A DNA stretch of 64,000 nucleotides. Origin: a virus. The DNA is taken from UHGV virus genome UHGV-0225074; one strand, written 5' to 3'. Both the position numbers and the translations under genes were made by a program. The notes under the pieces are model-generated. The model was not told where the DNA came from and searched no databases. It saw nothing but the letters and a program-made list of their open reading frames with translations. Shown in pieces: positions 41,545 through 56,947 of the stretch. Each line of letters opens with the position of its first letter. Within the stretch, counting starts at the first letter, position 1.

Positions 41545-42827
41545 GTTAATGTATCTAGTTCACGAACGCTTTGGCCCACAGGGAACTGAGGAACACCATC
41601 ATCAGTTCTAGCTTGGAACGTGAAGTTAATAAACTTACCCACCAGCAGGAGCATTCGTTCCTGAGATCTCTCTGCGTGGGTTCCCTTCATTTTACAGTTG
41701 AAACGTGTACCATCTTTCTCTTCGCAGAGTAATACACCCTCACCGTTCTTATCTTCCACAGAATCAAGGACTTTAGCCTCGCCATCTTGGAACAATTTCC
41801 ATTTTAGAAGGTCTGATGAACGCTGTCCAAATTCATACAAGCCTTTGAAGTTTCGGACAATAGAACCTTCAAACCCCCTCTCCATATATTTACCGATGGA
41901 CCATTTAACCTCTCTCTCACAAGAGACAACAATACCATGAACAATGTTAATAAGAGGTACTTCAAGTTCACACTCTACAGCTTCAGCAACGGATAAGAGG
42001 TCTTGGTGACGTGTCTTATCATGATCCGTTGAATACCAAGGACTTCCTGCATTCACAGGAATGTCGAAGATATGGTACTCTAGGTCAAGGCTTGAATAGC
42101 CGCCATAACGATCAACATCTTTAACTGGTTCGATCGCGATAGAGTAAACATCGCCATCAAAATCTTTCCAGCTCTCTTCCCCGTTGTCAACAGCTTTCTG
42201 ATGACGCTTCAGGTCAGACTGGTAATCCTTTTCAATCTCTTCTTCAATCTGCTCTGGTGTACGCCACTTCTTAGCGAGAGCGACAATCTTTTGCAGACTC
42301 AGACCATGAATGTACAGCTCCCCATCGAATTTGTCAAACCCTGAATGCTCAGAAAGGGATTTAACCTGTTTAGACAACTCAGAATCAAGCGGTACAGGAT
42401 ATAGTTTGTTACCACGGCTATTGAATTGTGGGAAGCCATCTGCATCAAGAGTAACCAGAGCACGTACACCATCGAGCTTTGGCTGTACGTATGCTGGATA
42501 AATTATTGATTTATAACGTTTAATTGCATCATGTGCCAGCATTGGGGAGAAGTTCTCTTCCTGTTCAAGCTTGCTTGTATCGTCACGATATCCAAGGCGA
42601 ACCTGTTTCTCCCATTTGGAAACGGCCTCAGCCCATGCTTGCTGTTCTGCGGTGGTTTCGTTAGAACGTCCAACGTTCTTTGGTTCACAGGTGGTAACCT
42701 TTTGTTGCTTCTTGCCACCAACCTTACCAAACTCTACAACTACCTGATTACCAACAATAAAAACCTTCCAACACTGGAAAGATCCATCTTTATTCAGTGC
42801 GAAAAGTGTTGAATTAACTTGTTGCAT
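41526..42827 (-). CDS. ATP-dependent DNA ligase
   Basis: KLDGVRAL motif I (KxDG), 433 aa. Confidence 0.75.
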   Translation of the reverse strand: MQQVNSTLFALNKDGSFQCWKVFIVGNQVVVEFGKVGGKKQQKVTTCEPKNVGRSNETTAEQQAWAEAVSKWEKQVRLGYRDDTSKLEQEENFSPMLAHDAIKRYKSIIYPAYVQPKLDGVRALVTLDADGFPQFNSRGNKLYPVPLDSELSKQVKSLSEHSGFDKFDGELYIHGLSLQKIVALAKKWRTPEQIEEEIEKDYQSDLKRHQKAVDNGEESWKDFDGDVYSIAIEPVKDVDRYGGYSSLDLEYHIFDIPVNAGSPWYSTDHDKTRHQDLLSVAEAVECELEVPLINIVHGIVVSCEREVKWSIGKYMERGFEGSIVRNFKGLYEFGQRSSDLLKWKLFQDGEAKVLDSVEDKNGEGVLLCEEKDGTRFNCKMKGTHAERSQERMLLLVGKFINFTFQARTDDGVPQFPVGQSVRELDTLTWEPVY

Positions 42828-43603
42828 TATTTCTCCTTTGTCTGTAAAACAGTTTTACCTTCAAGGTGATCCTCAACCATTTTAACCAGGCCGGGATTAC
42901 TAAAGGCATCAACAGCTCCGGTACGATAAACTACAACACCCGCATCTTCGTACATCAACTGCTCGTCATATCTAACAGCAGGATTGACAACTACAACTTT
43001 AGTACCCCGCATAACCGCAGGGAACAATTCCCAGTTGAAGTTGATTACCGTGTTTGAACATCCAACAACAATTACAAGGTCTTGGCTTGTCAAGGACTCT
43101 AAGGTATCATACATAGGGCCATAGGCTGGAGCATTTTCACCAAAGAAAATTACGTTTGGTTTACACCAATCATAATCATCAGGATCAATTTGGTCGTAAC
43201 CAATATCGACAATCTCTATCTTCTGAGTGAAAGCATCTTTAACAAGGATCTCTTTCAGATAACCATGTATGTACAGAGTATCTTCTTTCGGTACACCTGC
43301 ACGTTCCAACAAATCATCGACGTTAGTCGTCATGTTGATAACTTGTCCAGGATAACGTTTGTACCATTCAGCAACACGAAGATGTGCAGCATTCGGGTGT
43401 ACCGTTGGTAACTCTGCACGACGCTTGTTATAAAACATGTGCGTTTTATGGTAGAAATTACCACGGAAGGCGTGTATGTTACAAACCTCCTCAAGGTCGT
43501 ATTCATCCCACAGGGCTTTACCAGATTCAGTATCTGTGCGGAATGTACGTACACCACTCTCCGCAGAGAAGCCAGCACCACTTATAACGATAAGACGTCT
43601 CAT
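42827..43603 (-). CDS. Sir2-family NAD-dependent deacylase/ADP-ribosyltransferase-like protein lacking Zn Cys motifs
   Basis: ISGAGFSAESGVRTFR, TTNVDDLLERAG and HG Sir2 motifs. Confidence 0.7.
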   Translation of the reverse strand: MRRLIVISGAGFSAESGVRTFRTDTESGKALWDEYDLEEVCNIHAFRGNFYHKTHMFYNKRRAELPTVHPNAAHLRVAEWYKRYPGQVINMTTNVDDLLERAGVPKEDTLYIHGYLKEILVKDAFTQKIEIVDIGYDQIDPDDYDWCKPNVIFFGENAPAYGPMYDTLESLTSQDLVIVVGCSNTVINFNWELFPAVMRGTKVVVVNPAVRYDEQLMYEDAGVVVYRTGAVDAFSNPGLVKMVEDHLEGKTVLQTKEK

Positions 43604-43833: not shown

Positions 43834-44241
43834 TTACTGTAATTTCAATGAGTTACGCAGACGACGCTCTTGAGCATCACGAGTTTCCTGCGGAACACTG
43901 TGAATAGAATCATTCCCGTGGCGGTTCTCGACCACTAGGCTGATAACACGATACCCATTCTCCGCAGCGAGATCAAGATAAGGTTTCAGTTCTTTTTCAC
44001 TGGTAGAAGTATTAGACAAGATGATTTTACGAAATTTCCATTCCATCATTTCCTTTACTTGATCTTGGCACCATTTATGCGCTGCCTGGATATTTTCAGG
44101 TTTCCAGTCGTAAACACCATCTTCCGTGTAGTGAAATTTATCTGCTTCACAGATAGGCCACAAACCTTCTGCTAGCATATCTGCAACTGTAGATTTACCA
44201 GCACCAGACACACCGCGCAGGATAATCAGAGTCTTTTCCAT
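43834..44241 (-). CDS. P-loop kinase (polynucleotide kinase-like domain)
   Basis: LRGVSGAGKSTVA Walker A; 135 aa, kinase domain only. Confidence 0.5.
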   Translation of the reverse strand: MEKTLIILRGVSGAGKSTVADMLAEGLWPICEADKFHYTEDGVYDWKPENIQAAHKWCQDQVKEMMEWKFRKIILSNTSTSEKELKPYLDLAAENGYRVISLVVENRHGNDSIHSVPQETRDAQERRLRNSLKLQ

Positions 44242-44250
44242 CTCTTCTCC

Positions 44251-44595
44251 TCAGTAATTGTTTCTCAAGATCGTAATACGATACTTCGAGAAGCTCTCTT
44301 TTGCAAGCATGAACTTTTGTGCAGCAGAAGGGTTAGACGTGTGGACATAGAGTTTAGCATCATGCACAGGAAGTTTCCCATACACAAGCTTCTCTTCCAA
44401 GGCTAACAGGCAGTCATAGCCCTCCATTTCTGAATCTTCACCGAGGTCATTGTCGAAATGCCACTCTGTGACATAACGATAGAACTTTGACCGATTATCA
44501 AGAAAATCCATAAATTTCTGAGAGGTCTTGAACCACAATGCATCAGGATAACCGTAGTCTTTAGGGTCTCTTAAATCGTCAAGCCAGACAATCAT
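44251..44595 (-). CDS. hypothetical protein (114 aa)
   Basis: ORF between kinase and ligase. Confidence 0.45.
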   Translation of the reverse strand: MIVWLDDLRDPKDYGYPDALWFKTSQKFMDFLDNRSKFYRYVTEWHFDNDLGEDSEMEGYDCLLALEEKLVYGKLPVHDAKLYVHTSNPSAAQKFMLAKESFSKYRITILRNNY

Positions 44596-45554
44596 TTTTG
44601 AACTCCAACGTAAAAACGACTATCGCGATCAAAGAGGTCTTCAATCGCAAAATAATCTTCAACAACCTGACGACGTTTTTGAGAGTCCATCCCAGCCCAG
44701 TCGTCTTTAGAGTAATACTCACGAATATGGTCTAGCAACTCGTAATACTCTTCGTCAATACGCTTCTTGGCATCTTTCGGGTTATCCCAGATCATATCCC
44801 ACTTGTTATCACCTCCACGCATCAGGAATTTCTTCGCCAGATAATGTGGGGACTTGATTTTCAAAAGTAGTTCGCTATTTTCGTCATCTGTCCCGATATT
44901 TCGGACAACAAAACCTTCGTGGCTAACAGCATGACTGGCTGCAACGACATCGCCAAATGCACGGACATCCCATTGAGGACGTTTTGCACCGATCACTTCA
45001 GCGATGCGATCAAGTTTGTGCTCTTCAACCATAACACCGTTTAAAGCGAGATCACGGACACCAATCAGATAAGCACCTTCTTTCTCTTCCACAATATGTG
45101 GGTCGCTGCTATCGCATATTTCGAAAATGAAAGTGTAATCTTCACGGAAAGAAATCAGATCAAAATTCATTTTTTCGAGGTACTTACGAGCCAATTCTGA
45201 AAACTCAGAATCCAATGTCCCTGTTGTTGAAACGAGCAGCTTGTCTTTGTGTATTGCCGCTGTAGCCATAAAACCATTGACCTTGCGGGAACAAACAACC
45301 GGTTTGTCAAGAGGAAGGTCAGTTCCATTCTCGAAGCGGTTGAAAATCTTAGTGAAAGGCCAGATAATCACGTTGTCTTCTGAATCAACAACCATGCCAC
45401 GGCACTCAAGCAGTCGTGGGTCAGTATGCCACAGGTTATCCCAGAACACATTGTTCTTATACTTCAGCACAGAAAGACCCGCGAACGGGCCTTCGGTGTA
45501 AGTCTTTTTGGTTACCAGTTTTTTAGCAACCAAATCGTCTACGTTGAATTTCAT
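44592..45554 (-). CDS. Rnl2-like RNA ligase
   Basis: Motif I KVNG, motif IV EGFVVR, motif V K..K (LKIKSPHYLAKK); 320 aa. Confidence 0.55.
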   Translation of the reverse strand: MKFNVDDLVAKKLVTKKTYTEGPFAGLSVLKYKNNVFWDNLWHTDPRLLECRGMVVDSEDNVIIWPFTKIFNRFENGTDLPLDKPVVCSRKVNGFMATAAIHKDKLLVSTTGTLDSEFSELARKYLEKMNFDLISFREDYTFIFEICDSSDPHIVEEKEGAYLIGVRDLALNGVMVEEHKLDRIAEVIGAKRPQWDVRAFGDVVAASHAVSHEGFVVRNIGTDDENSELLLKIKSPHYLAKKFLMRGGDNKWDMIWDNPKDAKKRIDEEYYELLDHIREYYSKDDWAGMDSQKRRQVVEDYFAIEDLFDRDSRFYVGVQK

Positions 45555-46061: not shown

Positions 46062-46655
46062 TTATTCTCCGTGGTCAGCAGTGTAGATTGGTTTTTTGAG
46101 GCACATCAGGACTGCCTCACGCATCGTCAGAGGACGACCATGAACATCCCAACCTACATCGAGAATACGTCCACCGGGGGCTGTATAGGAGCCGTGGCTA
46201 TGCCCGTGCAACATAACTGACCCGTGGTGTGCTTTGTTCCACGATGCGAACGGATAGTGAGACATACACACATGCACCTTCTCTTTTCCAGTGCTGAAGT
46301 TAATCTCTTTATAATCAACGACTTCATGACCGAATTCACGGAAGATACGTTTCGTATCTCGGTTGTCATGGTTACCACCAACCAGAATGATCTTTCCGTT
46401 GATCTTTTCAAGGATGTCACGAACGCGAGGCTCCATGTAACGTCCGTAAGCAATCACGAAGTCACCAAGGTGCGCTACGACATCATCTGGTTTAACGTGC
46501 TTATTCCAGATTTCAATCATTCCTGCATTCATGGCATACAGACTTTCACGGTCTTCTTTTGGGCCGTACAGTTTCTTCCGGAATTTATCACACGAGGGAA
46601 AACCCAGAATATTGGTGTGCCACCAGTGCGTGTCTGACGTTACGTGGTCGATCAT
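46062..46655 (-). CDS. calcineurin-like metallophosphoesterase
   Basis: SDTHW ... HLGDF ... GGNHD ... GHSH metallophosphatase motifs. Confidence 0.7.
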   Translation of the reverse strand: MIDHVTSDTHWWHTNILGFPSCDKFRKKLYGPKEDRESLYAMNAGMIEIWNKHVKPDDVVAHLGDFVIAYGRYMEPRVRDILEKINGKIILVGGNHDNRDTKRIFREFGHEVVDYKEINFSTGKEKVHVCMSHYPFASWNKAHHGSVMLHGHSHGSYTAPGGRILDVGWDVHGRPLTMREAVLMCLKKPIYTADHGE

Positions 46656-46891: not shown

Positions 46892-47172
46892 TTTTTCTTC
46901 CTCTTCGTAGTTTTCTTATACAGACCCAGTGCAGCATTTTCCTGAGCACATGTCAATACACGTGTTAATCCGCGACGATCAACCTCCGGCATGTTAAGCT
47001 CCCACCAACCCATCCAATAGATCTGATCCTTTGTCAGTGGTTCCGCTTCAGGATCTGCCTCCTGTTCATTCAGTCTCTGTAGAGCATCTTTAATCACACC
47101 CACATCGGTTGTGAACACAAATGCAGAGGTATCAAACTTTTCCTTGACAGGTTTCCTGATATCTTTCTTCAT
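46888..47172 (-). CDS. hypothetical protein (94 aa)
   Basis: ORF. Confidence 0.45.
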   Translation of the reverse strand: MKKDIRKPVKEKFDTSAFVFTTDVGVIKDALQRLNEQEADPEAEPLTKDQIYWMGWWELNMPEVDRRGLTRVLTCAQENAALGLYKKTTKRKKK

Positions 47173-47459
47173 TTCATATCCTCAGCTGGGTAGGCGAACA
47201 GAAGCCCATCCCTTATTTTCTGGTAATGCTGCCACACAATAAGTTTCATGCACACCAAGTTAACGATATGCCTATCACCATGAATGTAAACTGAAGCATC
47301 CATCCATGTCTTTCCCCAGTCTACCCGGCTATCTAAGTACAGTTTCACACCATACTTTTTCTCCATAGACTTCATGATGTCTCTCAGAGCTAGATAAGCA
47401 TCTTTATAGATGGAGTCATCACGGGTAATGCTCTTCATATCCAAAATAATCCTCCACAA
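47169..47459 (-). CDS. hypothetical protein (96 aa)
   Basis: ORF. Confidence 0.45.
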   Translation of the reverse strand: MWRIILDMKSITRDDSIYKDAYLALRDIMKSMEKKYGVKLYLDSRVDWGKTWMDASVYIHGDRHIVNLVCMKLIVWQHYQKIRDGLLFAYPAEDMK

Positions 47460-47555
47460 TACCTCTCAGAGCCTCTGGGAGGCCCTGTATTTAATTTAAT
47501 ATGGGTTGGTAACCCAAGTGTACTACCACACCATTAAAACGCCTTAGAACACGTT

Positions 47556-47897
47556 CTAGAGCGTTACATGGATTTCACTTAGATCCACCACAACATTGTT
47601 GTTCTCGATGTGTTCCACAGTCAAGTCCTTTGCATATGTTACACACACATTACGTCGAGCTAGTCTCGACTTTACCGAAGCATAGAAGTTATCGAAGACC
47701 TTGTCAACTGGTATACCATCTGGTAATACCACGCACACATTGTGGTCTTCACCACATTCATGATACACTTCACGTATCATCATCAGCTTGGTCTTCTCTT
47801 CATCGGTCTGCTCCGGTTTCCGTCGTGGCTTACCACAGACCATTTCACCGATAATTTTTGTTTCTTTACTTGAAAACATAACAATCTCCTTTAACAT
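47556..47897 (-). CDS. hypothetical protein (113 aa), first gene of leftward block
   Basis: AGGAGA RBS; promoter immediately upstream. Confidence 0.5.
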   Translation of the reverse strand: MLKEIVMFSSKETKIIGEMVCGKPRRKPEQTDEEKTKLMMIREVYHECGEDHNVCVVLPDGIPVDKVFDNFYASVKSRLARRNVCVTYAKDLTVEHIENNNVVVDLSEIHVTL

Positions 47898-47904
47898 TCC
47901 CTAG

Positions 47905-47932
47905 ATTCTACACGTTAAAAAGTTCATGTCAA
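47905..47932 (-). promoter_or_regulatory. sigma70-like promoter (TTGACA-16-TAGAAT) for leftward block
   Basis: Consensus -35 and good -10 on minus strand. Confidence 0.55.
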
Positions 47933-47935
47933 CAC

Positions 47936-47964
47936 TTGACATCATCTTTTCTTCATACGATAAT
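47936..47964 (+). promoter_or_regulatory. sigma70-like promoter (TTGACA-17-GATAAT) for rightward NAD operon
   Basis: Consensus -35, 17-bp spacer; back-to-back with the minus-strand promoter. Confidence 0.5.
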
Positions 47965-48099
47965 CCAACTCATCGAGTCACCGACTCTATGATATAGAAT
48001 ATTTATACTCTGTAGTAAAAGATCTTGTTTTAGATCTTATGTTTTATTGTTTTTTAAAAGAGTATTGTTTTATTTATTTTATATAGTATTTATTTACGT

Positions 48100-48143
48100 G
48101 CTCAAATTGAGCATAGGCTTAGTATCAAAATGAGCACAGGCTA
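48100..48143. repeat. two 17-bp direct repeats CAAATTGAGCATAGGCT / CAAAATGAGCACAGGCT (operator-like)
   Basis: 14/17 identical, tandem with 8-bp gap, just upstream of RBS of 48156 gene. Confidence 0.6.
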
Positions 48144-48155
48144 TGGAGGAGTGAC

Positions 48156-48473
48156 ATGGGGTACATTGCAACAGGTAAGCACATCTACGGCAACTTCGAA
48201 CTGAAGCTGCTGTCGGTGACCTGTGCCTCTTCCAATGATAAGATAGTGTACCTATATATGCGGCATCAGTTCCATTACTTCAAATCGATGCGGAAGGAGT
48301 ACCACGAATCGCTGGATAGCATAGCTGATGCAGTTGGCCTATCACGGGCGACCACAACAAGGTGTGTAAGCAACCTTGAGAAATTAAAATGGTTGACAAA
48401 ACATACGACGCGTACCAAGATGGGTCACAACCAAACAATTTATGAAGTACATTCTTGGAAAGAGGAGAAATGA
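48156..48473 (+). CDS. winged-helix HTH DNA-binding protein (105 aa)
   Basis: GGAGGAG RBS; HTH-like SIADAVGLSRATTTRCVSNLEKL. Confidence 0.5.
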   Translation: MGYIATGKHIYGNFELKLLSVTCASSNDKIVYLYMRHQFHYFKSMRKEYHESLDSIADAVGLSRATTTRCVSNLEKLKWLTKHTTRTKMGHNQTIYEVHSWKEEK

Positions 48474-48474
48474 A

Positions 48475-49275
48475 ATGAGTTTAGAACTTCGTCTGAACAA
48501 ACTGGTAGTTCCTGTCGATCACTTTACGTTCAAAGGTGGTGAAGAACAGGTTAGAATCGATATGGCGCATACTCCGAAAGGTGGTATTGGTTTCGTAGAC
48601 ATCACTGCGAAAATTAAAAATTCTACTGATGTTATGGCACTTGCCATGTTGGTGGATGCATGTTCTCGCCTTGAAGGTCTCCATCATACTGCACAATTTA
48701 CTTTGCACTTGCCGTATATCCCATATGCACGTCAGGACCGCGTAATGCAACCTGGTGAAGCGTTATCCATCAAAGTTTTCGCAAATATCGTCAACTCTCT
48801 TGGGTTTGACAAGGTCATTGTCGATGATCCGCATAGCGATGTCTCCGCAGCACTGCTTAACAACGTTAAAATTCGTGGTCAGGATGCTCTTATTGCGGAA
48901 TTCCATGAAGGTCTTGCCGGAAAAGATGTTGTTATCGTTGCCCCTGACGCCGGAGCACGTAAAAAAGCTCAGAAAGTTTCCGATCGTCTCCGCCTCCCTC
49001 TGGTAGAAGCTGGAAAAGTGCGTGACCTGAAGACAAATGAAATTACCGGGACTGCTGTTTTCGGTGATGTTGAAGGCCGCGAGTGTGTTATTGTCGATGA
49101 TATCTGCGATGGTGGTCGAACATTCATTGCCCTGGCACAAGCATTGAAGGCAAAAGGTGCAAAACGTGTTATTCTTTACGTAACTCACGGTATCTTTTCC
49201 TTCGGTAAAGAAGTTATCTACGAAGGCGGCGTTGATGAAATCTACGCGTACCACGACTGGACCGAAAACTTTTAA
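48475..49275 (+). CDS. adps: ribose-phosphate pyrophosphokinase-like protein (Prs family; candidate NARP1 ADPR-PP synthetase Adps)
   Basis: AGGAG RBS before ATG 48475; PRPP-binding VIVDDICDGGRTF loop; paired with Nampt-like gene. Confidence 0.6.
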   Translation: MSLELRLNKLVVPVDHFTFKGGEEQVRIDMAHTPKGGIGFVDITAKIKNSTDVMALAMLVDACSRLEGLHHTAQFTLHLPYIPYARQDRVMQPGEALSIKVFANIVNSLGFDKVIVDDPHSDVSAALLNNVKIRGQDALIAEFHEGLAGKDVVIVAPDAGARKKAQKVSDRLRLPLVEAGKVRDLKTNEITGTAVFGDVEGRECVIVDDICDGGRTFIALAQALKAKGAKRVILYVTHGIFSFGKEVIYEGGVDEIYAYHDWTENF

Positions 49276-49335
49276 TTGACAAATGAATAAGTGGGCGTAC
49301 AATCGCCCTATTAAACAAACAAAGGAGAAACAAAA

Positions 49336-51022
49336 CATGCTTAATCAAGAAAGTCCTATCCTGTTCGCTGACTTTTACAAACCTTCACATATCTCCATGT
49401 ATGATAAACGTTCTGAAATTGTTCAGGATAACATGACCCCTCGTAATGCGAAGCACTTCATCCACTTCGCTGATAACGACCAGCGTGTCATGTTTGCTGG
49501 CCTTCAGGGATTTATTAAGTGGTTCCTTATCGACATGTTCAACAATAACTTCTTCAACCTCCCGAAAGAAGAAGCGGTTGCTGATTATCGTGAGGTTTGC
49601 GACTCCAGCATCGGCATTGGCATGGTAGAAACATGGGGCTTTGAGGCTCTTCATGATCTCGGTTATCTTCCTCTGGAAATCCGTGCTCTTCCAGAAGGGA
49701 CGCTTTCTCCGGTTCAGGTCCCAATGTTTACAATCCAGAATACGCACCCGGATTTTTACTGGTTGCCTAACTTCTTGGAAAGTGTGATCTCCGCAGAAAC
49801 TTGGAAAACTATCACAACTGCAACGACGTTCTGGCAGTATCGCAAGCTGTCTGAAAAATGGGCTGCTGAGACCTGTGATAACAACGACCATGTTGCATTC
49901 CAGAACCACTGCTTCGCATATCGCGGTGAAGCTGGTACTCACGACGCAGCACAGAGCGAATTTGGTCAACTGATCAACTCTATGGGTACAGACACTATCC
50001 CAGCGATTCTGTATGCTCGTCGTTATTACAACATGAAAGGCAAGTTCGTTGCTGGTTCTATTCCTGCATCTGAACACTCTGTTGCAACCACGAACATCGG
50101 CTTTATCGTCGGTCGCCTACAAGGTGAACACCCGGAACTAACTCTGGACGAAGCACGTTTCCTGGCTGAGGTTGAATTCCTGCGTTTCTACATCACGGAA
50201 ATTTTCCCTAAAGGTTTTGTTTCCTACGTGGCAGACAGTTATGACTTCTGGGCGATTATCACCAAAGCAGCAGCGATCCTGAAACAGGACATCATGGCAC
50301 GTGATGGTCGTGTTGTTTTCCGTCCTGACTCCGGCATTCCTGAACATATCATTGCAGGCTATCGTAGCCTCGGTGAGTTTGATGACTGGTCTGATGCGCT
50401 GCCAGCACTACAGGAAGATTCAAATTCAGAAGTTGCCAAGATTGAAGGTAAATACTACCGGATTCTTGTTGACGATGAAGATAATGCCTACTTCGACTTC
50501 CAACCTTCAGGTCTTGAAGAGCATGAAGTTAAGGGTGCAATTCAGTGTCTGTGGGAAATCTTTGGTGGTGAAGTTAACTCCAAGGGTTACAAAGTTCTGG
50601 ACAGTCATGTAGGTCTGATCTATGGTGATTCCATCACTGTTGCTCGTGCAAAAGACATCTTTGAACGTCTGAAAGATAAAGGCTTTGCATCCAGCAATAT
50701 CGTGTACGGTGTTGGTTCCTTTACCACCCAGTATACAACCCGTGATTCACTTGGTATGGCTGTGAAAGCAACTGGCGCTGTGATTGATGGTCAGCAGATC
50801 ATGGTTGTCAAAGAACCGAAGACTGACCTCGGTAAGAAATCTGCAAAAGGTTTCCTGAAGGTTGTTCGTGATGAGAATGGCGAACTGAAACTGGTTGACA
50901 ATTGTCAGCTTGAAGAGGTACAGTCTGAAGATAATGAACTGCGTCGTGTGTTCTACAACGGCAAACTGATTGTCGATGAAGATCTGACAACGATTCGTGA
51001 ACGCGCAGCCGATCAACTGTAA
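49336..51022 (+). CDS. namat: nicotinamide phosphoribosyltransferase-like protein (NadV/Nampt family; candidate NARP1 Namat)
   Basis: AAGGAG RBS before ATG 49336; ILFADFYKPSH matches the Nampt DSYK motif; about 560 aa. Confidence 0.6.
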
Positions 51023-51027
51023 TCAAT

Positions 51028-51048
51028 AAGCCCCTTCGGGGGCTTTTC
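51028..51048 (+). terminator. rho-independent terminator
   Basis: GCCCC-ttcg-GGGGC hairpin followed by TTTT. Confidence 0.75.
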
Positions 51049-51157
51049 TGATAGGTACACTATGGAAAATCCATGCAAGTGGCATGAAGTCCCGGTACAT
51101 GATTGCCTGACATGTAATAATACACCGACAAACCCGTATTATATTAAGGAGCCTAAA

Positions 51158-51373
51158 ATGTTTGGACCCGTAATGATGGAATGTAAAGTCTGTAAACAGG
51201 AGTTTGAAGCCGATCTTGAGGCTCATGGACCAGGTGTTTGCATCATTTCCTTTGGTTGTGGACATACAATGCACGCAACAAAGACCGAAACCAGCTGGGT
51301 AAACACGAAAACGGGAAATGTAGATCTCGTTGAAACCGCAAAACAGATTAAGGGGTCTGATTTCAGTGCGTAA
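51158..51373 (+). CDS. zinc-ribbon protein (71 aa from ATG 51158)
   Basis: AAGGAG RBS; CKVCK ... CGH. Confidence 0.45.
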   Translation: MFGPVMMECKVCKQEFEADLEAHGPGVCIISFGCGHTMHATKTETSWVNTKTGNVDLVETAKQIKGSDFSA

Positions 51374-51578
51374 TTTAGTCGCGAAACATGATTTTAACAG
51401 GGCATCTGTTCATGAAGACCAAAAGAAGTCTTGGGTTCCTGAGGTTGAGGAAGGTCTTGATGAATATTACGATGATGACTGTGAATGGGAGACCGATGAT
51501 GAGTTCATAGAACGTATCAGAGCACTCTCCATAGCAGAATACCGTCGTGGCGTCAACGACTCAGGTATCATGGATTGA
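51330..51578 (+). CDS. acidic hypothetical protein (start 51330 or GTG 51366)
   Basis: ORF overlapping previous gene end. Confidence 0.4.
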   Translation: MKPQNRLRGLISVRNLVAKHDFNRASVHEDQKKSWVPEVEEGLDEYYDDDCEWETDDEFIERIRALSIAEYRRGVNDSGIMD

Positions 51579-51652
51579 CAAAAAAGGTGTCCGCTGGTAA
51601 GATTGAGTTATCAAAATAACTTGACTCTTAACAACTTACACGGTAGGACACT

Positions 51653-51898
51653 ATGTTTAAACTAAAACTCGTTTACAAAACTGATAACGGAGAGTATATT
51701 GAACACGAATCGAATCATAGGGAACTGGATGAAGCCACTGATGAAGCGGATGAGATCGCTTTTTCTACAACTGGTTTTGGAATTGAAGCCTGGAAATACG
51801 TTGCCTCCTTCGGTGAAGAAGGTGGATTATACTATTTCTACCCCAATGATGAAGACCTCACAATCAAATACGCTCTCCGAATCTTCCGAACAATTTAA
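51653..51898 (+). CDS. acidic hypothetical protein (81 aa)
   Basis: ORF. Confidence 0.45.
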   Translation: MFKLKLVYKTDNGEYIEHESNHRELDEATDEADEIAFSTTGFGIEAWKYVASFGEEGGLYYFYPNDEDLTIKYALRIFRTI

Positions 51899-51961
51899 GA
51901 ATCGCAAACAACGCCGTGCTGAAGCGGCGATCAGTCGTTCAAAACGAAAAGGAGCAAAACG

Positions 51962-52081
51962 ATGAAAGATGAATTTGACGGGTTTATTGGTTACGGCGAA
52001 GGAATTCGTCAGGCTGAAGACGTAGATTTTTTCGTTGGTTTCGGAGAGGGGATTTCTTCTGATGAACGACCTGACCTCTAA
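51962..52081 (+). CDS. small repeat protein (39 aa; GYGEGI ... GFGEGI)
   Basis: AAAGGAG RBS; not in ORF track. Confidence 0.35.
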   Translation: MKDEFDGFIGYGEGIRQAEDVDFFVGFGEGISSDERPDL

Positions 52082-52256
52082 TCACTGTATCGCATTCTCG
52101 GAAAGAGACTGGCCTAGTGAAAGTCTGCGTGGTATGTATTATCATTCAGCCTGTACTAACTGCGGGAAGGAGTACATAGGTCCTAAAAGAGAAATTTTCT
52201 GTTTTATTTGCGGGAATAGTAAAAAAGACGTTGACAATGAAACAGGTAATCTATAA
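52062..52256 (+). CDS. zinc-ribbon protein (64 aa)
   Basis: CTNCG ... CFICG; in-frame internal start with GGAG upstream. Confidence 0.45.
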   Translation: MNDLTSNHCIAFSERDWPSESLRGMYYHSACTNCGKEYIGPKREIFCFICGNSKKDVDNETGNL

Positions 52257-52273
52257 TATCTACCACATCAAAC

Positions 52274-52346
52274 GTTCAGTAGCTCAGTTGGTAGAGCAGG
52301 TTCTTCATACGGACAAGGTCAGTGGTTCAATTCCGCTCTGAACGAT
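52274..52346 (+). tRNA. tRNA-Met(CAT)
   Basis: Cloverleaf by eye: CGTTCAG/CTGAACG acceptor, GCTC/GAGC D-stem, loop TTCATAC, T-loop TTCAATT. Confidence 0.6.
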
Positions 52347-52349
52347 AAG

Positions 52350-52424
52350 GCCCTCAAGCTCATTAGGTATGAGCAATCGACTCATAATCGAGAGGTAGGC
52401 AGGTTCGAATCCTCCGGGGGTCAC
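52350..52424 (+). tRNA. tRNA with CAT anticodon (Met/fMet/Ile-lysidine), CCA encoded
   Basis: Acceptor GGCCCTC/GGGGGTC with G-U pairs; loop CTCATAA; T-loop TTCGAAT. Confidence 0.55.
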
Positions 52425-52518
52425 CAATTAAAAATGTTGGCGAGGATATCTGATTGAGTTAGTATCCTCATGAACATAAACGGGACAAATTCCCAAATAA
52501 AATGCAAAGGAGAAAATT

Positions 52519-52830
52519 ATGACTAAGAAAAATACTGCTAAGAAAGTATCCGCCATCGACGCTATCAAACAGCCTTTCCAGTTTGAGTCGAAGTCTACTC
52601 AGACTCATTCTGCACCGCACGATGTGCGTCTCGGTGGTGTAGAGAAAACCGTATCAGTTTTCGATCGCCGTAAAGGCGAGTATAAATCCGAAACCCGGAT
52701 TGAAGGTGGTCAGATTATCTCTGCTTCTTACCGCATCCGCACAGGAAAGACCAAGCGTGAACGTGCTGGTAAGGTAAAGGAAACTAAGGTTGTTGAAACC
52801 GTAGCTCCGAAGAGTAAGAAGAAAAAGTAA
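52519..52830 (+). CDS. Lys-rich basic protein (103 aa)
   Basis: AAGGAG RBS; C-terminal APKSKKKK; inside tRNA array. Confidence 0.5.
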   Translation: MTKKNTAKKVSAIDAIKQPFQFESKSTQTHSAPHDVRLGGVEKTVSVFDRRKGEYKSETRIEGGQIISASYRIRTGKTKRERAGKVKETKVVETVAPKSKKKK

Positions 52831-52892
52831 TTTCTCCGGCATGGGGAATGACGATTCCGTGAAACGTCTTTAAAAACACGGGCATGTTTTCG

Positions 52893-52965
52893 GGGGTATT
52901 AACACAGCGGTTAGTGTAGCGGCCTCTTAAGCCGAAGGTCGAAGGTTCGAATCCTTCATGCCCCA
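52893..52965 (+). tRNA. tRNA-Lys(CTT), CCA encoded
   Basis: GGGGTAT/ATGCCCC acceptor, ACAC/GTGT D-stem, loop CTCTTAA, GAAGG-TTCGAAT-CCTTC T-arm. Confidence 0.6.
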
Positions 52966-53096
52966 CCAAGTTTGAAATGAGAGAGATACGGGTTCGACTC
53001 CCGTTCTTGCTGGCCCGGCTCGCGTAGTGGCACAGGGCGATAGCTTAAATGGACGAAAGTGCTCTCGTTTCAAATCTAAACCAAAAGGAGAACGAA

Positions 53097-53285
53097 ATGT
53101 TCGGATCCCTGTTACGTATGGCTGGCGATATTGTTGGTACTGCTGTTGTTGTCACGGCAACTGTTGCAGAACCTTTTGTAGATGTAGCCGCAGAAGTTCT
53201 TGACGCCGCTGATGAGATTATCGTATCACCTACCGCAGACGTCGTTGGTGAAGTTTGTGACTCCATTAAGGACATTGTACGATGA
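53097..53285 (+). CDS. small hydrophobic/acidic protein (62 aa)
   Basis: AAAGGAG RBS before ATG 53097. Confidence 0.45.
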   Translation: MFGSLLRMAGDIVGTAVVVTATVAEPFVDVAAEVLDAADEIIVSPTADVVGEVCDSIKDIVR

Positions 53286-53419
53286 GTGGCGGTGTTATCT
53301 TTATCATCATGTCAGTGATCTCTTTCCTGCTTGTTCTTTGGTATTATTGGTCATGGTTTGAAAACAACCCTACCACCGAAGAAATAATCAAAGATTCGCT
53401 TGACAAACACAATCTGTAA
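53282..53419 (+). CDS. small membrane protein (45 aa)
   Basis: ATGA coupling; single TM; not in ORF track. Confidence 0.4.
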   Translation: MSGGVIFIIMSVISFLLVLWYYWSWFENNPTTEEIIKDSLDKHNL

Positions 53420-53428
53420 GTGTAGTAT
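53400..53428 (+). promoter_or_regulatory. sigma70-like promoter (TTGACA-17-TAGTAT)
   Basis: Consensus -35 with 17-bp spacer, 30 nt upstream of 53461 gene. Confidence 0.5.
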
Positions 53429-53460
53429 TTAAAACCTAATTTAACGCAAAGGAGAACTTA

Positions 53461-54072
53461 ATGACTGATTCTAAAACTGTAATTTCCGTAACTGAACGTG
53501 CCACTAAAGCAGTAACCACTGCCGCTACTGGTCTGACTAAAGTAGTCGCTGAACTGCAATCTCTGGCAGAAGGGTCTGAAAAGATCAGTCAGGAAATTCA
53601 GTTTAAGCAGCAGGAACTGGGACAAATTGAAGTTCAGTTCAACGAAAAACTGGCAGAAGAAAAATCCAAGCTGAAGATCAAAGTTCTGGAAAATGAAGAT
53701 TCCGTTCTGAACTCTATCCTGAAAGCTCGCGGCCTTGTAGCTGTAGAACCGGGTGTTGTTGAAGACCTTCGTGCAGAGCTGGCGATCTCTCAGCAGAACA
53801 ATGCTGAAGCTGTAGAAAGCGCAGTTGCCGACGTTAAACGTAGCGCTGCAATCGAACTGAATGCGGTTAAGGCAAATCTGGAATCTGCTCACAAGGTTGC
53901 AATTGCAGAACTTACTGCGAATAGCAAGGCTAAGGATGACCGTATTGCAATGCTGACAGAACAGCTTGAAGCAGCGCGTGGTGATCTGAAGGCTGAACGC
54001 GAAACCCGTCTGGAAATCGCAAAAGCTGATGCTAACCGCCAGGGCGTTGTTGTCAACACTGGCAAAAACTAA
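53461..54072 (+). CDS. coiled-coil protein (203 aa), codon-optimised
   Basis: AAGGAG RBS; Ala/Glu/Lys-rich heptad-like sequence; E. coli-preferred codons. Confidence 0.55.
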   Translation: MTDSKTVISVTERATKAVTTAATGLTKVVAELQSLAEGSEKISQEIQFKQQELGQIEVQFNEKLAEEKSKLKIKVLENEDSVLNSILKARGLVAVEPGVVEDLRAELAISQQNNAEAVESAVADVKRSAAIELNAVKANLESAHKVAIAELTANSKAKDDRIAMLTEQLEAARGDLKAERETRLEIAKADANRQGVVVNTGKN

Positions 54073-54146
54073 TGCGTAGTGTCGACACGGATGTCGGCAA
54101 ATATTTGAAGTAACTTAAATTTTAAATTTCATGAGAGGAGAATTCT

Positions 54147-54794
54147 ATGTCTACTAAGATGTCTGTAACCCGCGCTCTGGCTACCCTGACCAAGGTTGAG
54201 GAAAAGATTCAGAAGCGTATCGAAGCGCTGAACACGATTCACATCGCGAAAGGCACTGACGCAAACCGTCAGATCCCAGGCTCTATCCAGAGCGTTGAGG
54301 ACTTCGAGAAATCTGCTCAGGCAGACTTCCAGGGTGTTCAGGATCTTCTGGCTGTTCGCGACGACCTGAAGGCGAAAGTTGTTCAGTCAAACGCTGTAAC
54401 AAAAGTTGAGATCGCTGGCGAGTCTATGACCGTAGCTCAGGCGATTGAACGTAAACGCACCATCGTTTTCAAAGAGCTTCTGCTTGGCAAACTGAAGTCT
54501 CAGTATAATCATGCTCAGGTTCGCCTGAACCGTGATACACAGGAATTCGAAGCGAAGCTTGAAGCTGCTCGTGCTCCATATGTCCAACGTGATAAAGCGC
54601 CAGACGCTGCACAGTTGGCTGTAGTAGAAGCGCCAGTTCGTAGCATGGGAACTCCTTCCATTGTCGACCCACTGGGTCTGGCAGATCGCATTCGTTCTCT
54701 GGAAGCAGAGATTGAAGACTTCAAGTCTAACGTTGACTTTGTTCTTTCCGAGTCAAATGCACGGACTGAAGTAGAGATTGAAGGATCAATCTAA
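54147..54794 (+). CDS. coiled-coil protein (215 aa), codon-optimised
   Basis: GAGAGGAG RBS; same style as 53461 gene. Confidence 0.55.
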   Translation: MSTKMSVTRALATLTKVEEKIQKRIEALNTIHIAKGTDANRQIPGSIQSVEDFEKSAQADFQGVQDLLAVRDDLKAKVVQSNAVTKVEIAGESMTVAQAIERKRTIVFKELLLGKLKSQYNHAQVRLNRDTQEFEAKLEAARAPYVQRDKAPDAAQLAVVEAPVRSMGTPSIVDPLGLADRIRSLEAEIEDFKSNVDFVLSESNARTEVEIEGSI

Positions 54795-55195
54795 AATATT
54801 TGCAGGAATTCTTGATTAACATCTTGTAATTCCTGTGAATAGCTGGTAAAGTTTTTAAATGCTGTTTTTGGTTAGCGAAGTCAGAAACATCTTGCCTCTA
54901 CCGGGGCCGGAGGTTAAACTGCTCCGAACATAATCATATAGGATGATACTTAAACGTATGTTTCCGTCAGTCCGCACAATGATGCGGTTTGATCGAAATT
55001 GTCGAATCGCGAATTCGAAAGACTTCAACATTCAGCATTCAAAGATTATCGTTCAAAGCTTAATGTTTAAACTTGAAGCTTCTAAACCGTAAAGCTAAAA
55101 TTTCTTTGATTACTTAAATCCTGGGTATAGGATCTTAGCTCACAAGATATGGCTAACTGACTCCTCCAGGCTGTTAATCGGAAACAGCATTTCTT

Positions 55196-55268
55196 GCTCG
55201 TATAGCTCAGTTGGTAGAGCAACTCCCTTGTAAGGAGAAGGTCGTGGGTTCAAGTCCTACTGCGAGCA
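55196..55268 (+). tRNA. tRNA-Thr(TGT), CCA encoded
   Basis: GCTCGTA/TGCGAGC acceptor, loop CTTGTAA, T-loop TTCAAGT. Confidence 0.65.
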
Positions 55269-55277
55269 CCAAACAAT

Positions 55278-55349
55278 TTCTCGATAGCTTACTTTGGTTA
55301 GAGCGGTCCCACGATAGGGACGGTACAGGTTCGATTCCTGTTCGAGAAG
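55278..55349 (+). tRNA. atypical tRNA-like gene, anticodon unclear (6-nt loop ACGATA on GTCCC/GGGAC stem)
   Basis: Perfect acceptor TTCTCGA/TCGAGAA, D- and T-arms present, CCA encoded, irregular anticodon arm. Confidence 0.35.
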
Positions 55350-55354
55350 CCAAT

Positions 55355-55460
55355 GCAGGGTAGGCGGTTTGTCAACCGCGAGGTCCATCCAGACCTGAAA
55401 AATATGCCAGAACTAACAGTACGGCTAAATACATAGGTGGTTAGATTCCACCGCCCTGCT
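55355..55460 (+). tRNA. atypical long (106 nt) tRNA-like gene with about 38-nt insert in the variable region
   Basis: Acceptor GCAGGGT/GCCCTGC, D-arm GCGG/CCGC, T-arm GGTGG-TTAGATT-CCACC, CCA encoded; anticodon arm irregular. Confidence 0.3.
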
Positions 55461-55645
55461 CCAAATCTATTCTGCTAGGTTCTGAAACACTTAAAATCTC
55501 CTGCATCTAGTGGGGTGTGATCTCTGTGTCGGCTTTGATATCAAGTTGATGAAAGGGATGGCGTAGGCTCTTCTTCGCAAGTAGAGGCGCTTCGGAGAGG
55601 CAACGGCGGTTGTCAGGACATCGGGACTTCACAAAATAGATTTCT

Positions 55646-55731
55646 GCGGGATTGGTGGTATTGGCAGTACACACGAGGCTTAAGACTTCGTAGGCCTCTG
55701 GGCCTTGAGGGTTCGAATCCCTCATCCCGCA
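55646..55731 (+). tRNA. tRNA-Leu(TAA), type II, CCA encoded
   Basis: GCGGGAT/ATCCCGC acceptor, loop CTTAAGA, variable-arm hairpin AGGCC/GGCCT. Confidence 0.6.
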
Positions 55732-55740
55732 CCAGTTTAA

Positions 55741-55819
55741 GAGGGCGTATCTCAACGGGCTTCTAACCCGTCGTTAATCGAGTAATTGGAGTATGCGGGT
55801 TCGAATCCTGCCGCCTTCG
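55741..55819 (+). tRNA. tRNA-Arg(TCT)-like, atypical (no clear D-arm)
   Basis: Perfect ACGGG-CTTCTAA-CCCGT anticodon arm and T-arm, CCA encoded; only 7 nt between acceptor and anticodon stem. Confidence 0.3.
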
Positions 55820-55938
55820 CCAAATTCACAGGACAGCCGGGACGGGTTTACTCCGAGCTGTGGAAGCGTCGAAAGACTATAGGACACGTCTTGACCCGAA
55901 TGTGTGGGAGCGAATTGAAATAATCGGGTCCCCCAAAA

Positions 55939-56009
55939 GCACGGTTGCTGGAGTGGCAACAGCTTTCTCTGCAAAAGAAATGTCAGGTGTTCGATTCACC
56001 TACCGTGCT
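55939..56009 (+). tRNA. tRNA-Cys(GCA), CCA encoded
   Basis: GCACGGT/ACCGTGC acceptor, TTTCT-CTGCAAA-AGAAA anticodon arm. Confidence 0.6.
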
Positions 56010-56051
56010 CCAAGTTGTTGAATATTTTTATAAAAAATGATAAAATGGCCC

Positions 56052-56080
56052 TTGACAGATAAATTTAAATCTGATAACAT
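56052..56080 (+). promoter_or_regulatory. sigma70-like promoter (TTGACA-17-TAACAT)
   Basis: Consensus -35 upstream of 56098 gene. Confidence 0.35.
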
Positions 56081-56097
56081 TAATAAGTGGGGTTATT

Positions 56098-56448
56098 ATG
56101 GCAGTAAAACAACAACTTACAAAGCGTCGTAGAGGAAAAGGTAGACCCCTTAAAGAAGAGTCTAATGCTATTCAGCTTGAGAAGAATATCCTTGACCTTA
56201 AGACCAATATGATTGCTATGATTCCTGATGCTCATAAGGTATTGAAAGATCTTATGACAAGTGCCACAACAAAGGACAATATCAGGGAAAATATTGCTCG
56301 ATTTGTAATTGAGAAAGGCGAACAAATGCTTTCTGATTACTTCGATGAAGAGAATGAAGAAGCTGAAACAACTAATGTTGATGACAATAAGTCTACTCCT
56401 ATGAGTAGGCCGTTCACAACAGATATTGTTCAGTTCAAACAAGGTTAA
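56098..56448 (+). CDS. hypothetical protein with basic N-terminus (116 aa)
   Basis: ORF inside tRNA array; KRRRGKGRP. Confidence 0.5.
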   Translation: MAVKQQLTKRRRGKGRPLKEESNAIQLEKNILDLKTNMIAMIPDAHKVLKDLMTSATTKDNIRENIARFVIEKGEQMLSDYFDEENEEAETTNVDDNKSTPMSRPFTTDIVQFKQG

Positions 56449-56450
56449 TT

Positions 56451-56531
56451 GGCTCGTTGGCAGAATGGCTATTGCAGCGGATTGTAAATCCGTGCCCTTC
56501 GGGGTTCCTGGTTCGAGTCCAGGGTGGGCCA
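56451..56531 (+). tRNA. tRNA-Tyr(GTA), type II, CCA encoded
   Basis: Loop TTGTAAA on GCGGA/TCCGT stem; variable-arm hairpin; T-loop TTCGAGT. Confidence 0.55.
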
Positions 56532-56540
56532 CCAATTAAT

Positions 56541-56613
56541 GGGAGTATAGCTCAGTCAGTAGAGCGCTCGACCGATAATCGAGAGGTCGCAGGAGCAAAG
56601 CCTGCTACTCCCA
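56541..56613 (+). tRNA. tRNA-Ile(GAT), unusual T-loop AGCAAAG
   Basis: GGGAGTA/TACTCCC acceptor, CTCGA-CCGATAA-TCGAG anticodon arm, CCA encoded. Confidence 0.5.
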
Positions 56614-56706
56614 CCACTCTCCGTCATAGTACCGCATCCTGACGTTTCGGATTGCATAATCAAGGTACTGGGAACTAGTAAGATACTATGACGGGATCGA
56701 TTTAAA

Positions 56707-56780
56707 GCGTTATTAGTGTTAGCGGTCCAGCACTCCGTCCTTCCAAGTCGGAAGCATCGGTTCGAATCCGATATAACGCT
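56707..56780 (+). tRNA. tRNA-Gly(TCC), CCA encoded
   Basis: GCGTTAT/ATAACGC acceptor, loop CTTCCAA, ATCGG-TTCGAAT-CCGAT T-arm. Confidence 0.6.
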
Positions 56781-56864
56781 CCAAATACGCCCCTAAACTG
56801 ATGAACGTCTGCGCGGCTGGAAACACCCACTCAATAGTTCAGATACCCAGGGGCAACAAACAAA

Positions 56865-56937
56865 TGCTCCTATCGGCTAAATGGACAGGCCGTCAGACTT
56901 TCAATCTGGAAATCCGAGTTCGATCCTCGGTGGGAGT
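56865..56937 (+). tRNA. tRNA-Glu(TTC), CCA encoded
   Basis: TCAGA-CTTTCAA-TCTGG anticodon arm, CCGAG-TTCGATC-CTCGG T-arm. Confidence 0.55.
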
Positions 56938-56947
56938 ACCAAATAAT

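Follow-up and report, generated by a model that had tools for sequence, protein, structure and literature searches.

A predicted NARP1 operon behind a separable winged-helix gene in a Mydovirus-type Klebsiella phage

The UHGV virus genome UHGV-0225074 was analyzed as a single stretch of 64,000 nucleotides (nt), hereafter the window. The window represents a Mydovirus-type (Vequintavirinae) Klebsiella phage: positions 48000-51200 share 97% nt identity with phages KpS11, KPP-1, Iguana_ER37, and VIK251 and with Proteus phage Mydo. At ~47.9-48.15 kb the coding strand switches, with leftward genes on the left and rightward genes on the right, and a turn in the cumulative GC skew falls there as well. 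The rightward arm opens with three genes on the + strand (48156-51022) encoding a winged helix-turn-helix (wHTH) protein, a Prs-like protein, and a Nampt-like protein. An earlier note, made from the letters of the window, had read these genes as a compact rightward cluster resembling the NAD+ reconstitution pathway 1 (NARP1), formed by the enzymes Adps and Namat. The cluster is real: all three open reading frames (ORFs) lie on the + strand, the phosphoribosyl pyrophosphate (PRPP)-binding loop motif VIVDDICDGGRTF is present in the Prs-like protein, and the DFYK motif is present in the Nampt-like protein, within the sequence FADFYK.

The wHTH gene (48156-48473, + strand) encodes 105 amino acids (aa), carries the ribosome-binding site (RBS) GGAGGA 6 nt upstream, and stops 1 nt before the ATG of the next gene. 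That gene, the Prs-like one (48475-49275, + strand), encodes 266 aa beginning MSLELRL and is the predicted first enzyme of NARP1, Adps. Its longest ORF begins at 48442; the ATG at 48475 is the start in all annotated relatives and in the published table. The Nampt-like gene (49337-51022, + strand) encodes 561 aa beginning MLNQES, is preceded by the RBS AAGGAG, and is the predicted second enzyme, Namat. In this case the longest ORF begins at 49283 and the true start is the ATG at 49337. Adps and Namat are separated by 61 nt with no ORF. Such pairs were said to have been long annotated as Prs plus a NadV-type enzyme, and every deposited relative is still so named, with "ribose-phosphate pyrophosphokinase" and "nicotinamide phosphoribosyltransferase" appearing in every record.

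Profile searches with Pfam, PHROG, and NCBIfam matched both proteins far beyond chance and bore out their assignment to the Prs and Nampt families. The Prs-like protein matched Pfam Pribosyltran_N, Pribosyltran, and Pribosyl_synth (E 1e-11 to 5e-18) and PHROG 619 (E 4.5e-95). The Nampt-like protein matched Pfam NAPRTase (E 1e-26), NCBIfam NF006629 (482 bits), and PHROG 448 (E 4.8e-196). Among the NCBIfam models, the Prs-like protein cleared only the cut-off of the broad TIGR01251 subfamily (169.8 bits vs. 113). It fell far below every listed Prs model with an equivalog-level cut-off, including the equivalog NF002095 (125.1 vs. 296), and it scored 137.4 against NF002320, a model labelled subfamily with a cut-off of 297.

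NARP1 was defined with phage Bas63, in which deletion of genes 79-80 resulted in sensitivity to SIR2-HerA; ADP-ribose pyrophosphate (ADPR-PP) built up only when wild-type phage met the defense system, and the pathway was found in 859 phages (Osterman et al., bioRxiv 10.1101/2024.02.11.579819). In its supplementary tables, the same study names the Mydovirus phages KpS8, vB_KpnM_BIS47, Mydo, KNP2, and VIK251, with the Namat flag "Yes" and the label "Adps-associated". Because the window proteins match these published entries, at 100% identity for Adps and 97% for Namat and with the specificity determinants kept, the locus is a catalogued NARP1 rather than a NARP1-like one.

The window Adps was 100% identical to the KpS8/BIS47 entry in Table S1 of Osterman et al. 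and to the VIK251 protein, and was one residue away from the Mydo protein. The Table S1 flag for the KpS8/BIS47 Adps reads "Namat within 10 genes: Yes"; in the window Namat begins 61 nt past the Adps stop. Across the Adps clade, 97% of proteins have Namat within ten genes, and bacterial prs genes very rarely do (Osterman et al., bioRxiv 10.1101/2024.02.11.579819). Since the window protein is listed in the table and has a Namat neighbor, it is placed in the Adps clade of the published tree (Osterman et al. Figure 3C, Table S1). Identity was 42% to the Bas63 Adps (BLASTP) and, in a multiple alignment, 38% to the ICP1 Adps, 33% to the SPbetaL1 Adps, and 29% to E. coli Prs.

The structure of ICP1 Adps has a catalytic Lys185, a repurposed pyrophosphate (PP) loop, and conserved acceptor residues, and has lost the Prs alpha11-alpha12 module (PMC13586617). 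The catalytic Lys (ICP1 K185, SPbetaL1 K162) sits on a beta-hairpin, and the PP loop holds the ATP donor (PMC13586617). In the window Adps, K181 aligned with the catalytic Lys, the PP loop D208-F217 (DDICDGGRTF) matched the Bas63 loop exactly, and the acceptor residues R86, H120, D158, D208, D209, and D212 were retained. At 266 aa versus 315 aa for E. coli Prs, its C-terminus is 49 aa shorter and the C-terminal alpha11-alpha12 filament and regulatory module is gone, the alignment stopping short of the C-terminal segment of Prs. Among the contacts to the adenine of ADP-ribose (ADPR), F19 and R86 were conserved (ICP1 F18 and R87). The position of ICP1 F92 was occupied by M91 in the window and by M102 in Bas63, and was a gap in SPbetaL1. 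Because the functional Bas63 enzyme has Met at this position too, the residue is not invariant among functional Adps proteins.

The window Namat differed from the VIK251 Namat at 16 of 561 positions (97% identical). In the tree, the VIK251 protein represents the Mydo entry; it is the one labelled "Adps-associated" in Table S2 of Osterman et al. Identity was 40% to the Bas63 Namat over its full length and 47.5% to the SPbetaL1 Namat. The best PDB match was the SPbetaL1 Namat (9W5X/9W5W, E 2.7e-124), human Nampt matched at ~1e-48, and Namat structures were ahead of all Nampt structures by >70 orders of magnitude in E-value. The second-best structural relative, PDB 9KE8, does not have the clamp aromatics described below; a literature search on this entry found no paper. 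Taking the SPbetaL1 residues D13, Y15, F189, R192, D215, the catalytic His, R306, and D308 as the reference for the catalytic core, all were kept in the window protein (D12, Y14, F193, R196, D219, the catalytic His H247, R329, and D331). Relative to SPbetaL1, the window Namat contains an insertion of ~20 aa after the catalytic His and another of ~50 aa at residues 340-395.

A selectivity clamp was set out in the paper on the Namat structure (PMC12774641). The clamp helix of the window protein (G460-D470) reads GSFTTQYTTRD, with aromatic residues at F462 and Y466 and with T468, R469, and D470 at its end. The same position reads GGALLQKVDRD in the Xanthomonas Nampt and GAQTYQRNTRD in PDB 9KE8. 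Clamp loops have Arg, Lys, or Tyr as their third residue, and when it is Lys or Tyr, stacking falls to the fourth (PMC12774641). The window loop is of the Lys type: K39 aligned with SPbetaL1 R40 and Bas63 K42 and is followed by H40-F41, the corresponding Bas63 pair being K42-W43. As judged from this alignment, K39-H40 fits the published rule for the loop. With the one exception of the non-invariant contact residue at ICP1 F92, all NARP1 features that can be examined in the sequence appear to be present at the locus.

The chemistry predicted for the two window enzymes follows from their identity to catalogued members and from the conserved specificity residues. A host NADase defense (Thoeris, DSR1/2, SIR2-HerA, SEFIR, etc.) would split NAD+ into ADPR and nicotinamide. 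Adps (48475-49275) would then use ATP to pyrophosphorylate the terminal ribose of ADPR, giving ADPR-PP, and Namat (49337-51022) would exchange the pyrophosphate of ADPR-PP for nicotinamide, regenerating NAD+. Both reactions were reported for purified SPbetaL1 enzymes, with ADPR and ATP converted to ADPR-PP by Adps and ADPR-PP and nicotinamide converted to NAD+ by Namat (bioRxiv 10.1101/2024.02.11.579819). Altogether, the chemistry has been demonstrated for the SPbetaL1, ICP1, and Bas63 homologs. The field already has NARP1 genetics and biochemistry, structures of both Namat and Adps, bacterial homologs, NARP1-AP and RyDEP loci, and the further pathways NARP2 and NARP3. The NARP1 reading of the earlier note is therefore correct, but the novelty that it implied did not survive: the locus is a catalogued member of a pathway already characterized by genetics, biochemistry, and structures.

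Among known systems, the Mydovirus phages KpS8, vB_KpnM_BIS47, Mydo, and VIK251 have essentially the same genes as the window, with no difference of substance. Mydovirus KNP2 differs upstream, where two other ORFs and a 24-nt repeat family replace the wHTH cassette. Bas63 (JohannRWettstein, genes 79-80) is the genetically characterized NARP1 prototype and has Adps followed by Namat on one strand, as in the window. It also shares the PP loop DDICDGGRTF, the Lys-type clamp loop, and the placement of the two Namat insertions that are absent from SPbetaL1. In contrast to the window, Bas63 is a Felixounavirus, has no wHTH gene before Adps, and has a longer Namat insertion. Bas63 was set aside as a direct ortholog from the Vequintavirinae lineage, its record being that of a Felixounavirus, so that the comparison crosses families at 40-42% identity. 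The SPbetaL1 Adps and Namat (9W5X, 9W5W; PMC12774641) and the ICP1 Adps (PMC13586617) share with the window the catalytic Lys, the acceptor residues, and the C-terminal loss; SPbetaL1 Namat stacks Arg40 where the window clamp loop has Lys-His. Canonical E. coli PrsA and the human and Xanthomonas Nampt proteins share folds, catalytic cores, and kinds of Pfam domain with the window proteins.

Extended NARP1 loci share the Adps/Namat core with the window: NARP1-AP consists of Adps, the Macro-domain ADPR-1P phosphatase Adpp, and Namat, and RyDEP loci encode a RyR-domain glycosidase. No Macro or RyR domain was found in the 61-nt spacer or in the three downstream ORFs scanned (51062-51898). The gene upstream of Adps encodes the wHTH protein, and the downstream ORFs matched DUF7230, gave a weak zinc-finger match, or matched nothing, so the locus is not NARP1-AP. 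The absence of a Macro or RyR gene from the Adps-Namat junction and the scanned downstream ORFs identifies the window operon as the plain form. NARP2 (Nampt and Nmnat) and NARP3 (PnuC and NadR) have the same aim as the window operon, the restoration of NAD+ under NADase immunity. The adjacent Adps and the Table S2 label "Adps-associated" speak against assignment of the window locus to NARP2.

Junctions with additional DNA were seen in several relatives. In Escherichia phage 4MG (L012 6120-6653) a 177-aa ORF with no Pfam match lies between Adps and Namat and has a start-stop overlap with Adps. A similar Adps-Namat gap of ~590 nt was present in an uncultured relative (L011), the region is ~500 bp longer in Cronobacter and Salmonella relatives, and an Erwinia phage has a 52-aa ORF at the junction. 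By its position, which is like that of Adpp or of the RyDEP gene, the 177-aa ORF of 4MG is a candidate NARP1 accessory gene.

The earlier note had given the operon a promoter and a terminator of its own, and predicted elements for both were located and found to be conserved in relatives. A sigma-70-like promoter (TTGACA-17-GATAAT; 47936-47964, + strand) matched at 11/12 positions and is the predicted start of the wHTH-Adps-Namat unit. Comparison of the window with VIK251, KNP2, an Erwinia phage, and a metagenomic relative showed little or no variation in the TTGACA and GATA.T elements of this promoter, but diverged flanks. Back to back with it is a leftward promoter-like sequence, TTGACA-16-TAGAAT (47932-47905, - strand). 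At the other end, a terminator-like hairpin (AAGCCCC-UUCG-GGGGCUU followed by UUCU; 51028-51049, + strand) lies 6 nt past the Namat stop. It folds at -15.9 kcal/mol (z = -2.97), and 0 of 200 shuffled sequences folded as well. A hairpin with a T-run was present at the same place in seven relatives, with loops TTCG, TTAG, and GAAA and in one case another stem (ACCCGACC/GGTCGGGT). The terminator scan did not list the 51028-51049 hairpin, which was confirmed through folding and comparison with relatives; it is a structural element and most likely a terminator. With its short T-run it is possibly leaky, and transcripts may run on into the small ORFs and tRNA genes that follow. Transcription of wHTH-Adps-Namat thus probably runs rightward from the 47936-47964 promoter and mostly stops at the hairpin; the operon boundaries and the promoter function are plausible on these predictions.

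Between the two enzyme genes there is an internal promoter-like site, TTGACA-16-TACAAT (49276-49303, + strand; 11/12 match), overlapped by a GC-rich hairpin, GGGCG-TACAAT-CGCCC (49293-49308, + strand), located just upstream of the Namat RBS. The hairpin loop is the -10 element of the promoter-like site. The hairpin was kept in 4MG, Erwinia, and metagenomic relatives with altered stems (GGGGTG/CACCCC and GGGGAGA/TCTCCCC), in which one pair had changed on both sides. The 49276-49308 element may act in mRNA processing or stability, or may be a second promoter for Namat.

An AlphaFold2 model of the wHTH protein (predicted local distance difference test score 82) folded as four helices and a beta-hairpin, a classic winged helix. 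Its Foldseek neighbors included MarR/ArsR-type regulators, plasmid RepA_N, and DnaD-N, with no clear discrimination among them. The protein matched PHROG 8102, "replication initiation protein", at E 1e-35 over positions 9-113 of the 337-position profile, i.e., its N-terminal third. Among 18 aligned family members, DUF6945 was matched in 18/18 and HTH_36 in 17/18. Of 50,697 phage records searched, 36 contained a homolog, and almost all of these were Vequintavirinae-type phages. A word-indexed search of 5.8 billion proteins returned nine clusters of close relatives, 191 of 1.84 billion representatives matched in a profile search, with just 13 below 1e-10, and an IMG/VR scan with a narrower alignment recovered the same lineage only. 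The wHTH gene also heads the rightward arm in Erwinia phage pEp_SNUABM_01 and in a metagenomic contig (L008), where it has a 4-nt overlap with Adps.

The leader of the wHTH gene contains two 18-nt direct repeats (48098-48142), 23 nt apart from start to start, which are candidate binding sites for the protein. The copies are TCAAATTGAGCATAGGCT at 48102-48119 and TCAAAATGAGCACAGGCT at 48125-48142, and the first lies inside a perfect 15-bp palindrome, TGCTCAA-A-TTGAGCA (TGCTCAAATTGAGCA), at 48099-48113. The repeat motif had no other occurrence within the 64-kb window. The repeat block was conserved in the Erwinia and Logan relatives despite differing surrounding intergenic DNA. In the metagenomic contig L014, the wHTH protein of which is 54% identical, a co-diverged pair (TTTTGACACTAGGG and AAATGATACTAGGC) occupies the same place. 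Upstream of the repeats is a tract of 84% A+T (47993-48092), the richest 100 bp of the 64-kb window (mean 55.6%). This tract may be a stretch of curved, promoter-distal DNA; should the locus prove to be an origin, it could instead serve as a DNA-unwinding element. The leader as an RNA structure was discarded, as by inspection the between-phage differences in the repeats keep direct-repeat identity and not base pairing; apart from tRNAs there was no Rfam match within 47000-53000. Because protein and repeats co-vary, the wHTH protein most likely binds the two dyad repeats in its own leader. From the position of these repeats, autoregulation of the rightward unit, with incidental control of NARP1, can be proposed with moderate confidence; the protein would act as a dimer on the two repeats.

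The wHTH gene and NARP1 were found to part company in both directions. In KNP2, the Adps and Namat of which are 95% identical to those of the window, the segment from the repeats through the wHTH gene has been replaced exactly (L006 1340-2291 vs. window 48060-48473) by ORFs of 120 aa and 146 aa, with flanks and NARP1 ~95-99% identical. The 146-aa ORF gave weak, near-threshold matches to MarR_2 and HTH_36, and both ORFs were faintly similar to the window wHTH. The KNP2 cassette carries three copies of a 24-nt dyad repeat, TATTCCTNNTCGGGAATAATTAGA, of a different family from the window repeats. The KNP2 block represents an exchange of protein and sites as a single cassette. Two more distant wHTH relatives were checked, one of them on a contig too short to tell. 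The other is the metagenomic contig L014/L016 (Logan SRR26434398), where the left arm is syntenic and the 54%-identical wHTH, its repeats, and the downstream DUF7230 and 81-aa genes are kept. Adps is absent from L014/L016 and Namat is a 48-aa remnant (L014:5341-5481, E 7e-4; region L014 5315-5661), a state that points to secondary loss of NARP1. The wHTH gene, along with its repeats, behaves as a self-contained cassette of this locus, present with or without NARP1.

The reading preferred here, to which a probability of roughly 0.92 is assigned, takes the locus as a plain two-gene NARP1 operon of a Mydovirus-type Klebsiella phage, accompanied by a wHTH protein that would be separate and swappable, bind repeats of its own, and not be specific to NARP1. 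Several points weigh against it. The predicted enzyme activities are carried over from homologs with identities of 33-42% for Adps and 40-48% for Namat (33-48% overall). The ICP1 F92 adenine contact is Met in the window and in Bas63, a change that is tolerated, given that NARP1 of Bas63 works in vivo. The Namat clamp motif has Thr at position 5, where an aromatic is commonest, and the two insertions separate the window Namat from the crystallized SPbetaL1 enzyme, the Bas63 Namat being inserted at the same positions. Binding of the wHTH protein to the repeats is judged from co-occurrence and co-divergence, and the repeats, at ~130 nt downstream from the predicted promoter, are unusually placed for a simple repressor. 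The enzymes themselves have another possible account in the classical annotation, under which an ordinary Prs and a Nampt/NadV salvage enzyme would make PRPP and then nicotinamide mononucleotide (NMN), and an NMN adenylyltransferase of host or phage would finish NAD+ in the manner of NARP2. The Pfam, PHROG, and NCBIfam names do read Prs and nicotinamide/nicotinate phosphoribosyltransferase (PRTase), all deposited relatives are annotated as Prs and Nampt, and Namat enzymes keep PRPP-to-NMN activity in vitro if ADPR-PP is absent. However, the Prs-like protein sits in the Adps table with an adjacent Namat, misses the cut-offs of all listed equivalog-level Prs models, and has no C-terminal alpha11-alpha12 module, and the SPbetaL1 Adps had no PRPP synthetase activity. 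Bas63 NARP1 functioned without host PncC and NadR. The Nampt-like protein bears adenine-clamp aromatics that are absent in Nampt, and its label is "Adps-associated", not "Nmnat-associated". A pair of ordinary salvage enzymes is accordingly given very little credence.

For the wHTH protein, the earlier note had suggested a possible role as a dedicated regulator, taken here as one that evolved with NARP1 and controls it specifically. The wHTH stop lies 1 nt before the Adps start, with the 4-nt overlap in the Erwinia and Logan relatives, and the order wHTH-Adps-Namat is kept in the NARP1-bearing Vequintavirinae-type loci read (Mydovirus except KNP2, 4MG, the Henunavirus Erwinia phage, and uncultured relatives). 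The KNP2 replacement genes again appear to encode wHTH proteins, so that some wHTH always heads the operon. The protein also gave a weak, sub-threshold Pfam match to "wHTH-PRTase associated" (20.3 bits vs. a 27-bit cut-off); this lead was rejected as a link between the HTH and Prs, being below threshold and one of many generic wHTH matches, and a literature search for wHTH and PRTase found nothing relevant. Against a dedicated role, KNP2 has NARP1 without the window wHTH or its repeats, and L014/L016 have the wHTH and repeats without Adps and with a Namat remnant only. The 36 phage records with the wHTH belong almost entirely to one lineage, compared with the 859 phages with NARP1, and no such gene lies immediately upstream of the Bas63 NARP1. 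The model has no ligand-binding domain for sensing NAD+ or ADPR, and the wider family resembles the DNA-binding domains of replication initiators. Because wHTH and NARP1 are separable in both directions, the dedicated role is unsupported and is considered improbable. The resemblance to initiators raises a further account, in which the wHTH protein would be a stand-alone origin-binding domain of O/DnaD-N-like type, the divergent intergenic region a replication origin, the repeats iterons, the 84% A+T tract an unwinding element, and NARP1 mere cargo. All 18 family members matched PHROG 8102, 14-17 matched the O-like/replication-initiation families 678, 391, 428, and 270, and nine matched a helicase loader family of DnaD-like type; transcription regulators were represented by just one PHROG. 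Structural neighbors included the plasmid RepA-DNA complex 5KBJ, the initiator domains 4PQL and 4PT7, and DnaD-N 2V79. The most AT-rich 100 bp of the window abut the repeats in a layout like that of a replication origin, and protein and repeats swap as one cassette, as initiator/origin pairs do. Distant relatives (P0011, P0013, P0021, P0023, and P0024) have C-terminal extensions with acidic ...(I/S/E)PF tails like the C-terminus of the single-stranded DNA-binding protein SSB; the window protein has no such tail. The cumulative GC skew turns at the divergent intergenic region, but this turn coincides with the transcription switch and is not independent evidence. There are also only two repeats, and an O- or DnaD-like initiator combines a wHTH with a C-terminal recruiting domain: the wHTH part matches, but the 105-aa protein, which covers positions 9-113 of 337 in PHROG 8102, has no domain for recruitment of a helicase or loader. 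MarR/ArsR repressors were Foldseek neighbors at similar scores, and a perfect palindrome within the leader of the protein itself is the arrangement typical of an autorepressor. To our knowledge there is no experimental origin mapping for these phages, and this was counted against an origin function, which is possible but doubtful. An origin function and autoregulation by the wHTH are not mutually exclusive. On a still more tentative view, the wHTH, repeats, and AT tract would form either a swappable initiator-origin cassette or an autoregulated gate at a divergent promoter hub of Vequintavirinae-type phages, with NARP1 translationally coupled behind. NARP1 expression would then be tied to replication initiation or an early switch rather than being that of constitutive cargo, and the KNP2 swap would be an "allelic" change of specificity.

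The leftward arm beside NARP1 encodes, on the - strand, an ATP-dependent DNA ligase (41526-42827), a Sir2-family protein (42827-43603), which lies 4.5 kb from NARP1, an AAA_33 kinase-like protein (43834-44241), a T4 Rnl1-like RNA ligase (44592-45554), and a calcineurin-like phosphoesterase (46062-46655). The kinase, ligase, and phosphoesterase look like a tRNA-repair set. A strict link between Sir2 and NARP1 was considered and rejected: homologs of Sir2 turned up in 976 phage records, among which are rV5-like and T5-like phages absent among the NARP1 table entries listed, an absence that is not conclusive. No Sir2 gene was found within 10 kb of the left arm in L014/L016.

Downstream of NARP1, 24 tRNA genes are clustered on the + strand (52273-59694). 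For the tRNA at 55278-55352, ARAGORN gave a 2-nt anticodon; VIK251 is annotated with tRNA-Ser at the corresponding position. In the record OY978796.1 (Klebsiella phage vB_Kpn_K45PH128C2), the annotation is seemingly out of register with the sequence, with "DNA polymerase / HNH endonuclease" under the NARP1 match and "nicotinamide-nucleotide adenylyltransferase" under the Sir2 match.

The NARP1 assignment is useful mainly for annotation, as relatives are still named Prs and Nampt despite the 2024 NARP1 catalogue. Klebsiella Mydovirus phages are therapy candidates, and a plain NARP1 predicts resistance to NADase defenses of the SIR2/TIR type. By the logic of the aRES paper, plain NARP1 without the Macro phosphatase predicts sensitivity to aRES defenses that produce ADPR-1P. 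What is mildly new is the wHTH-repeat cassette, separable from NARP1 and a candidate origin or early-gene switch in a subfamily whose regulation is essentially unstudied.

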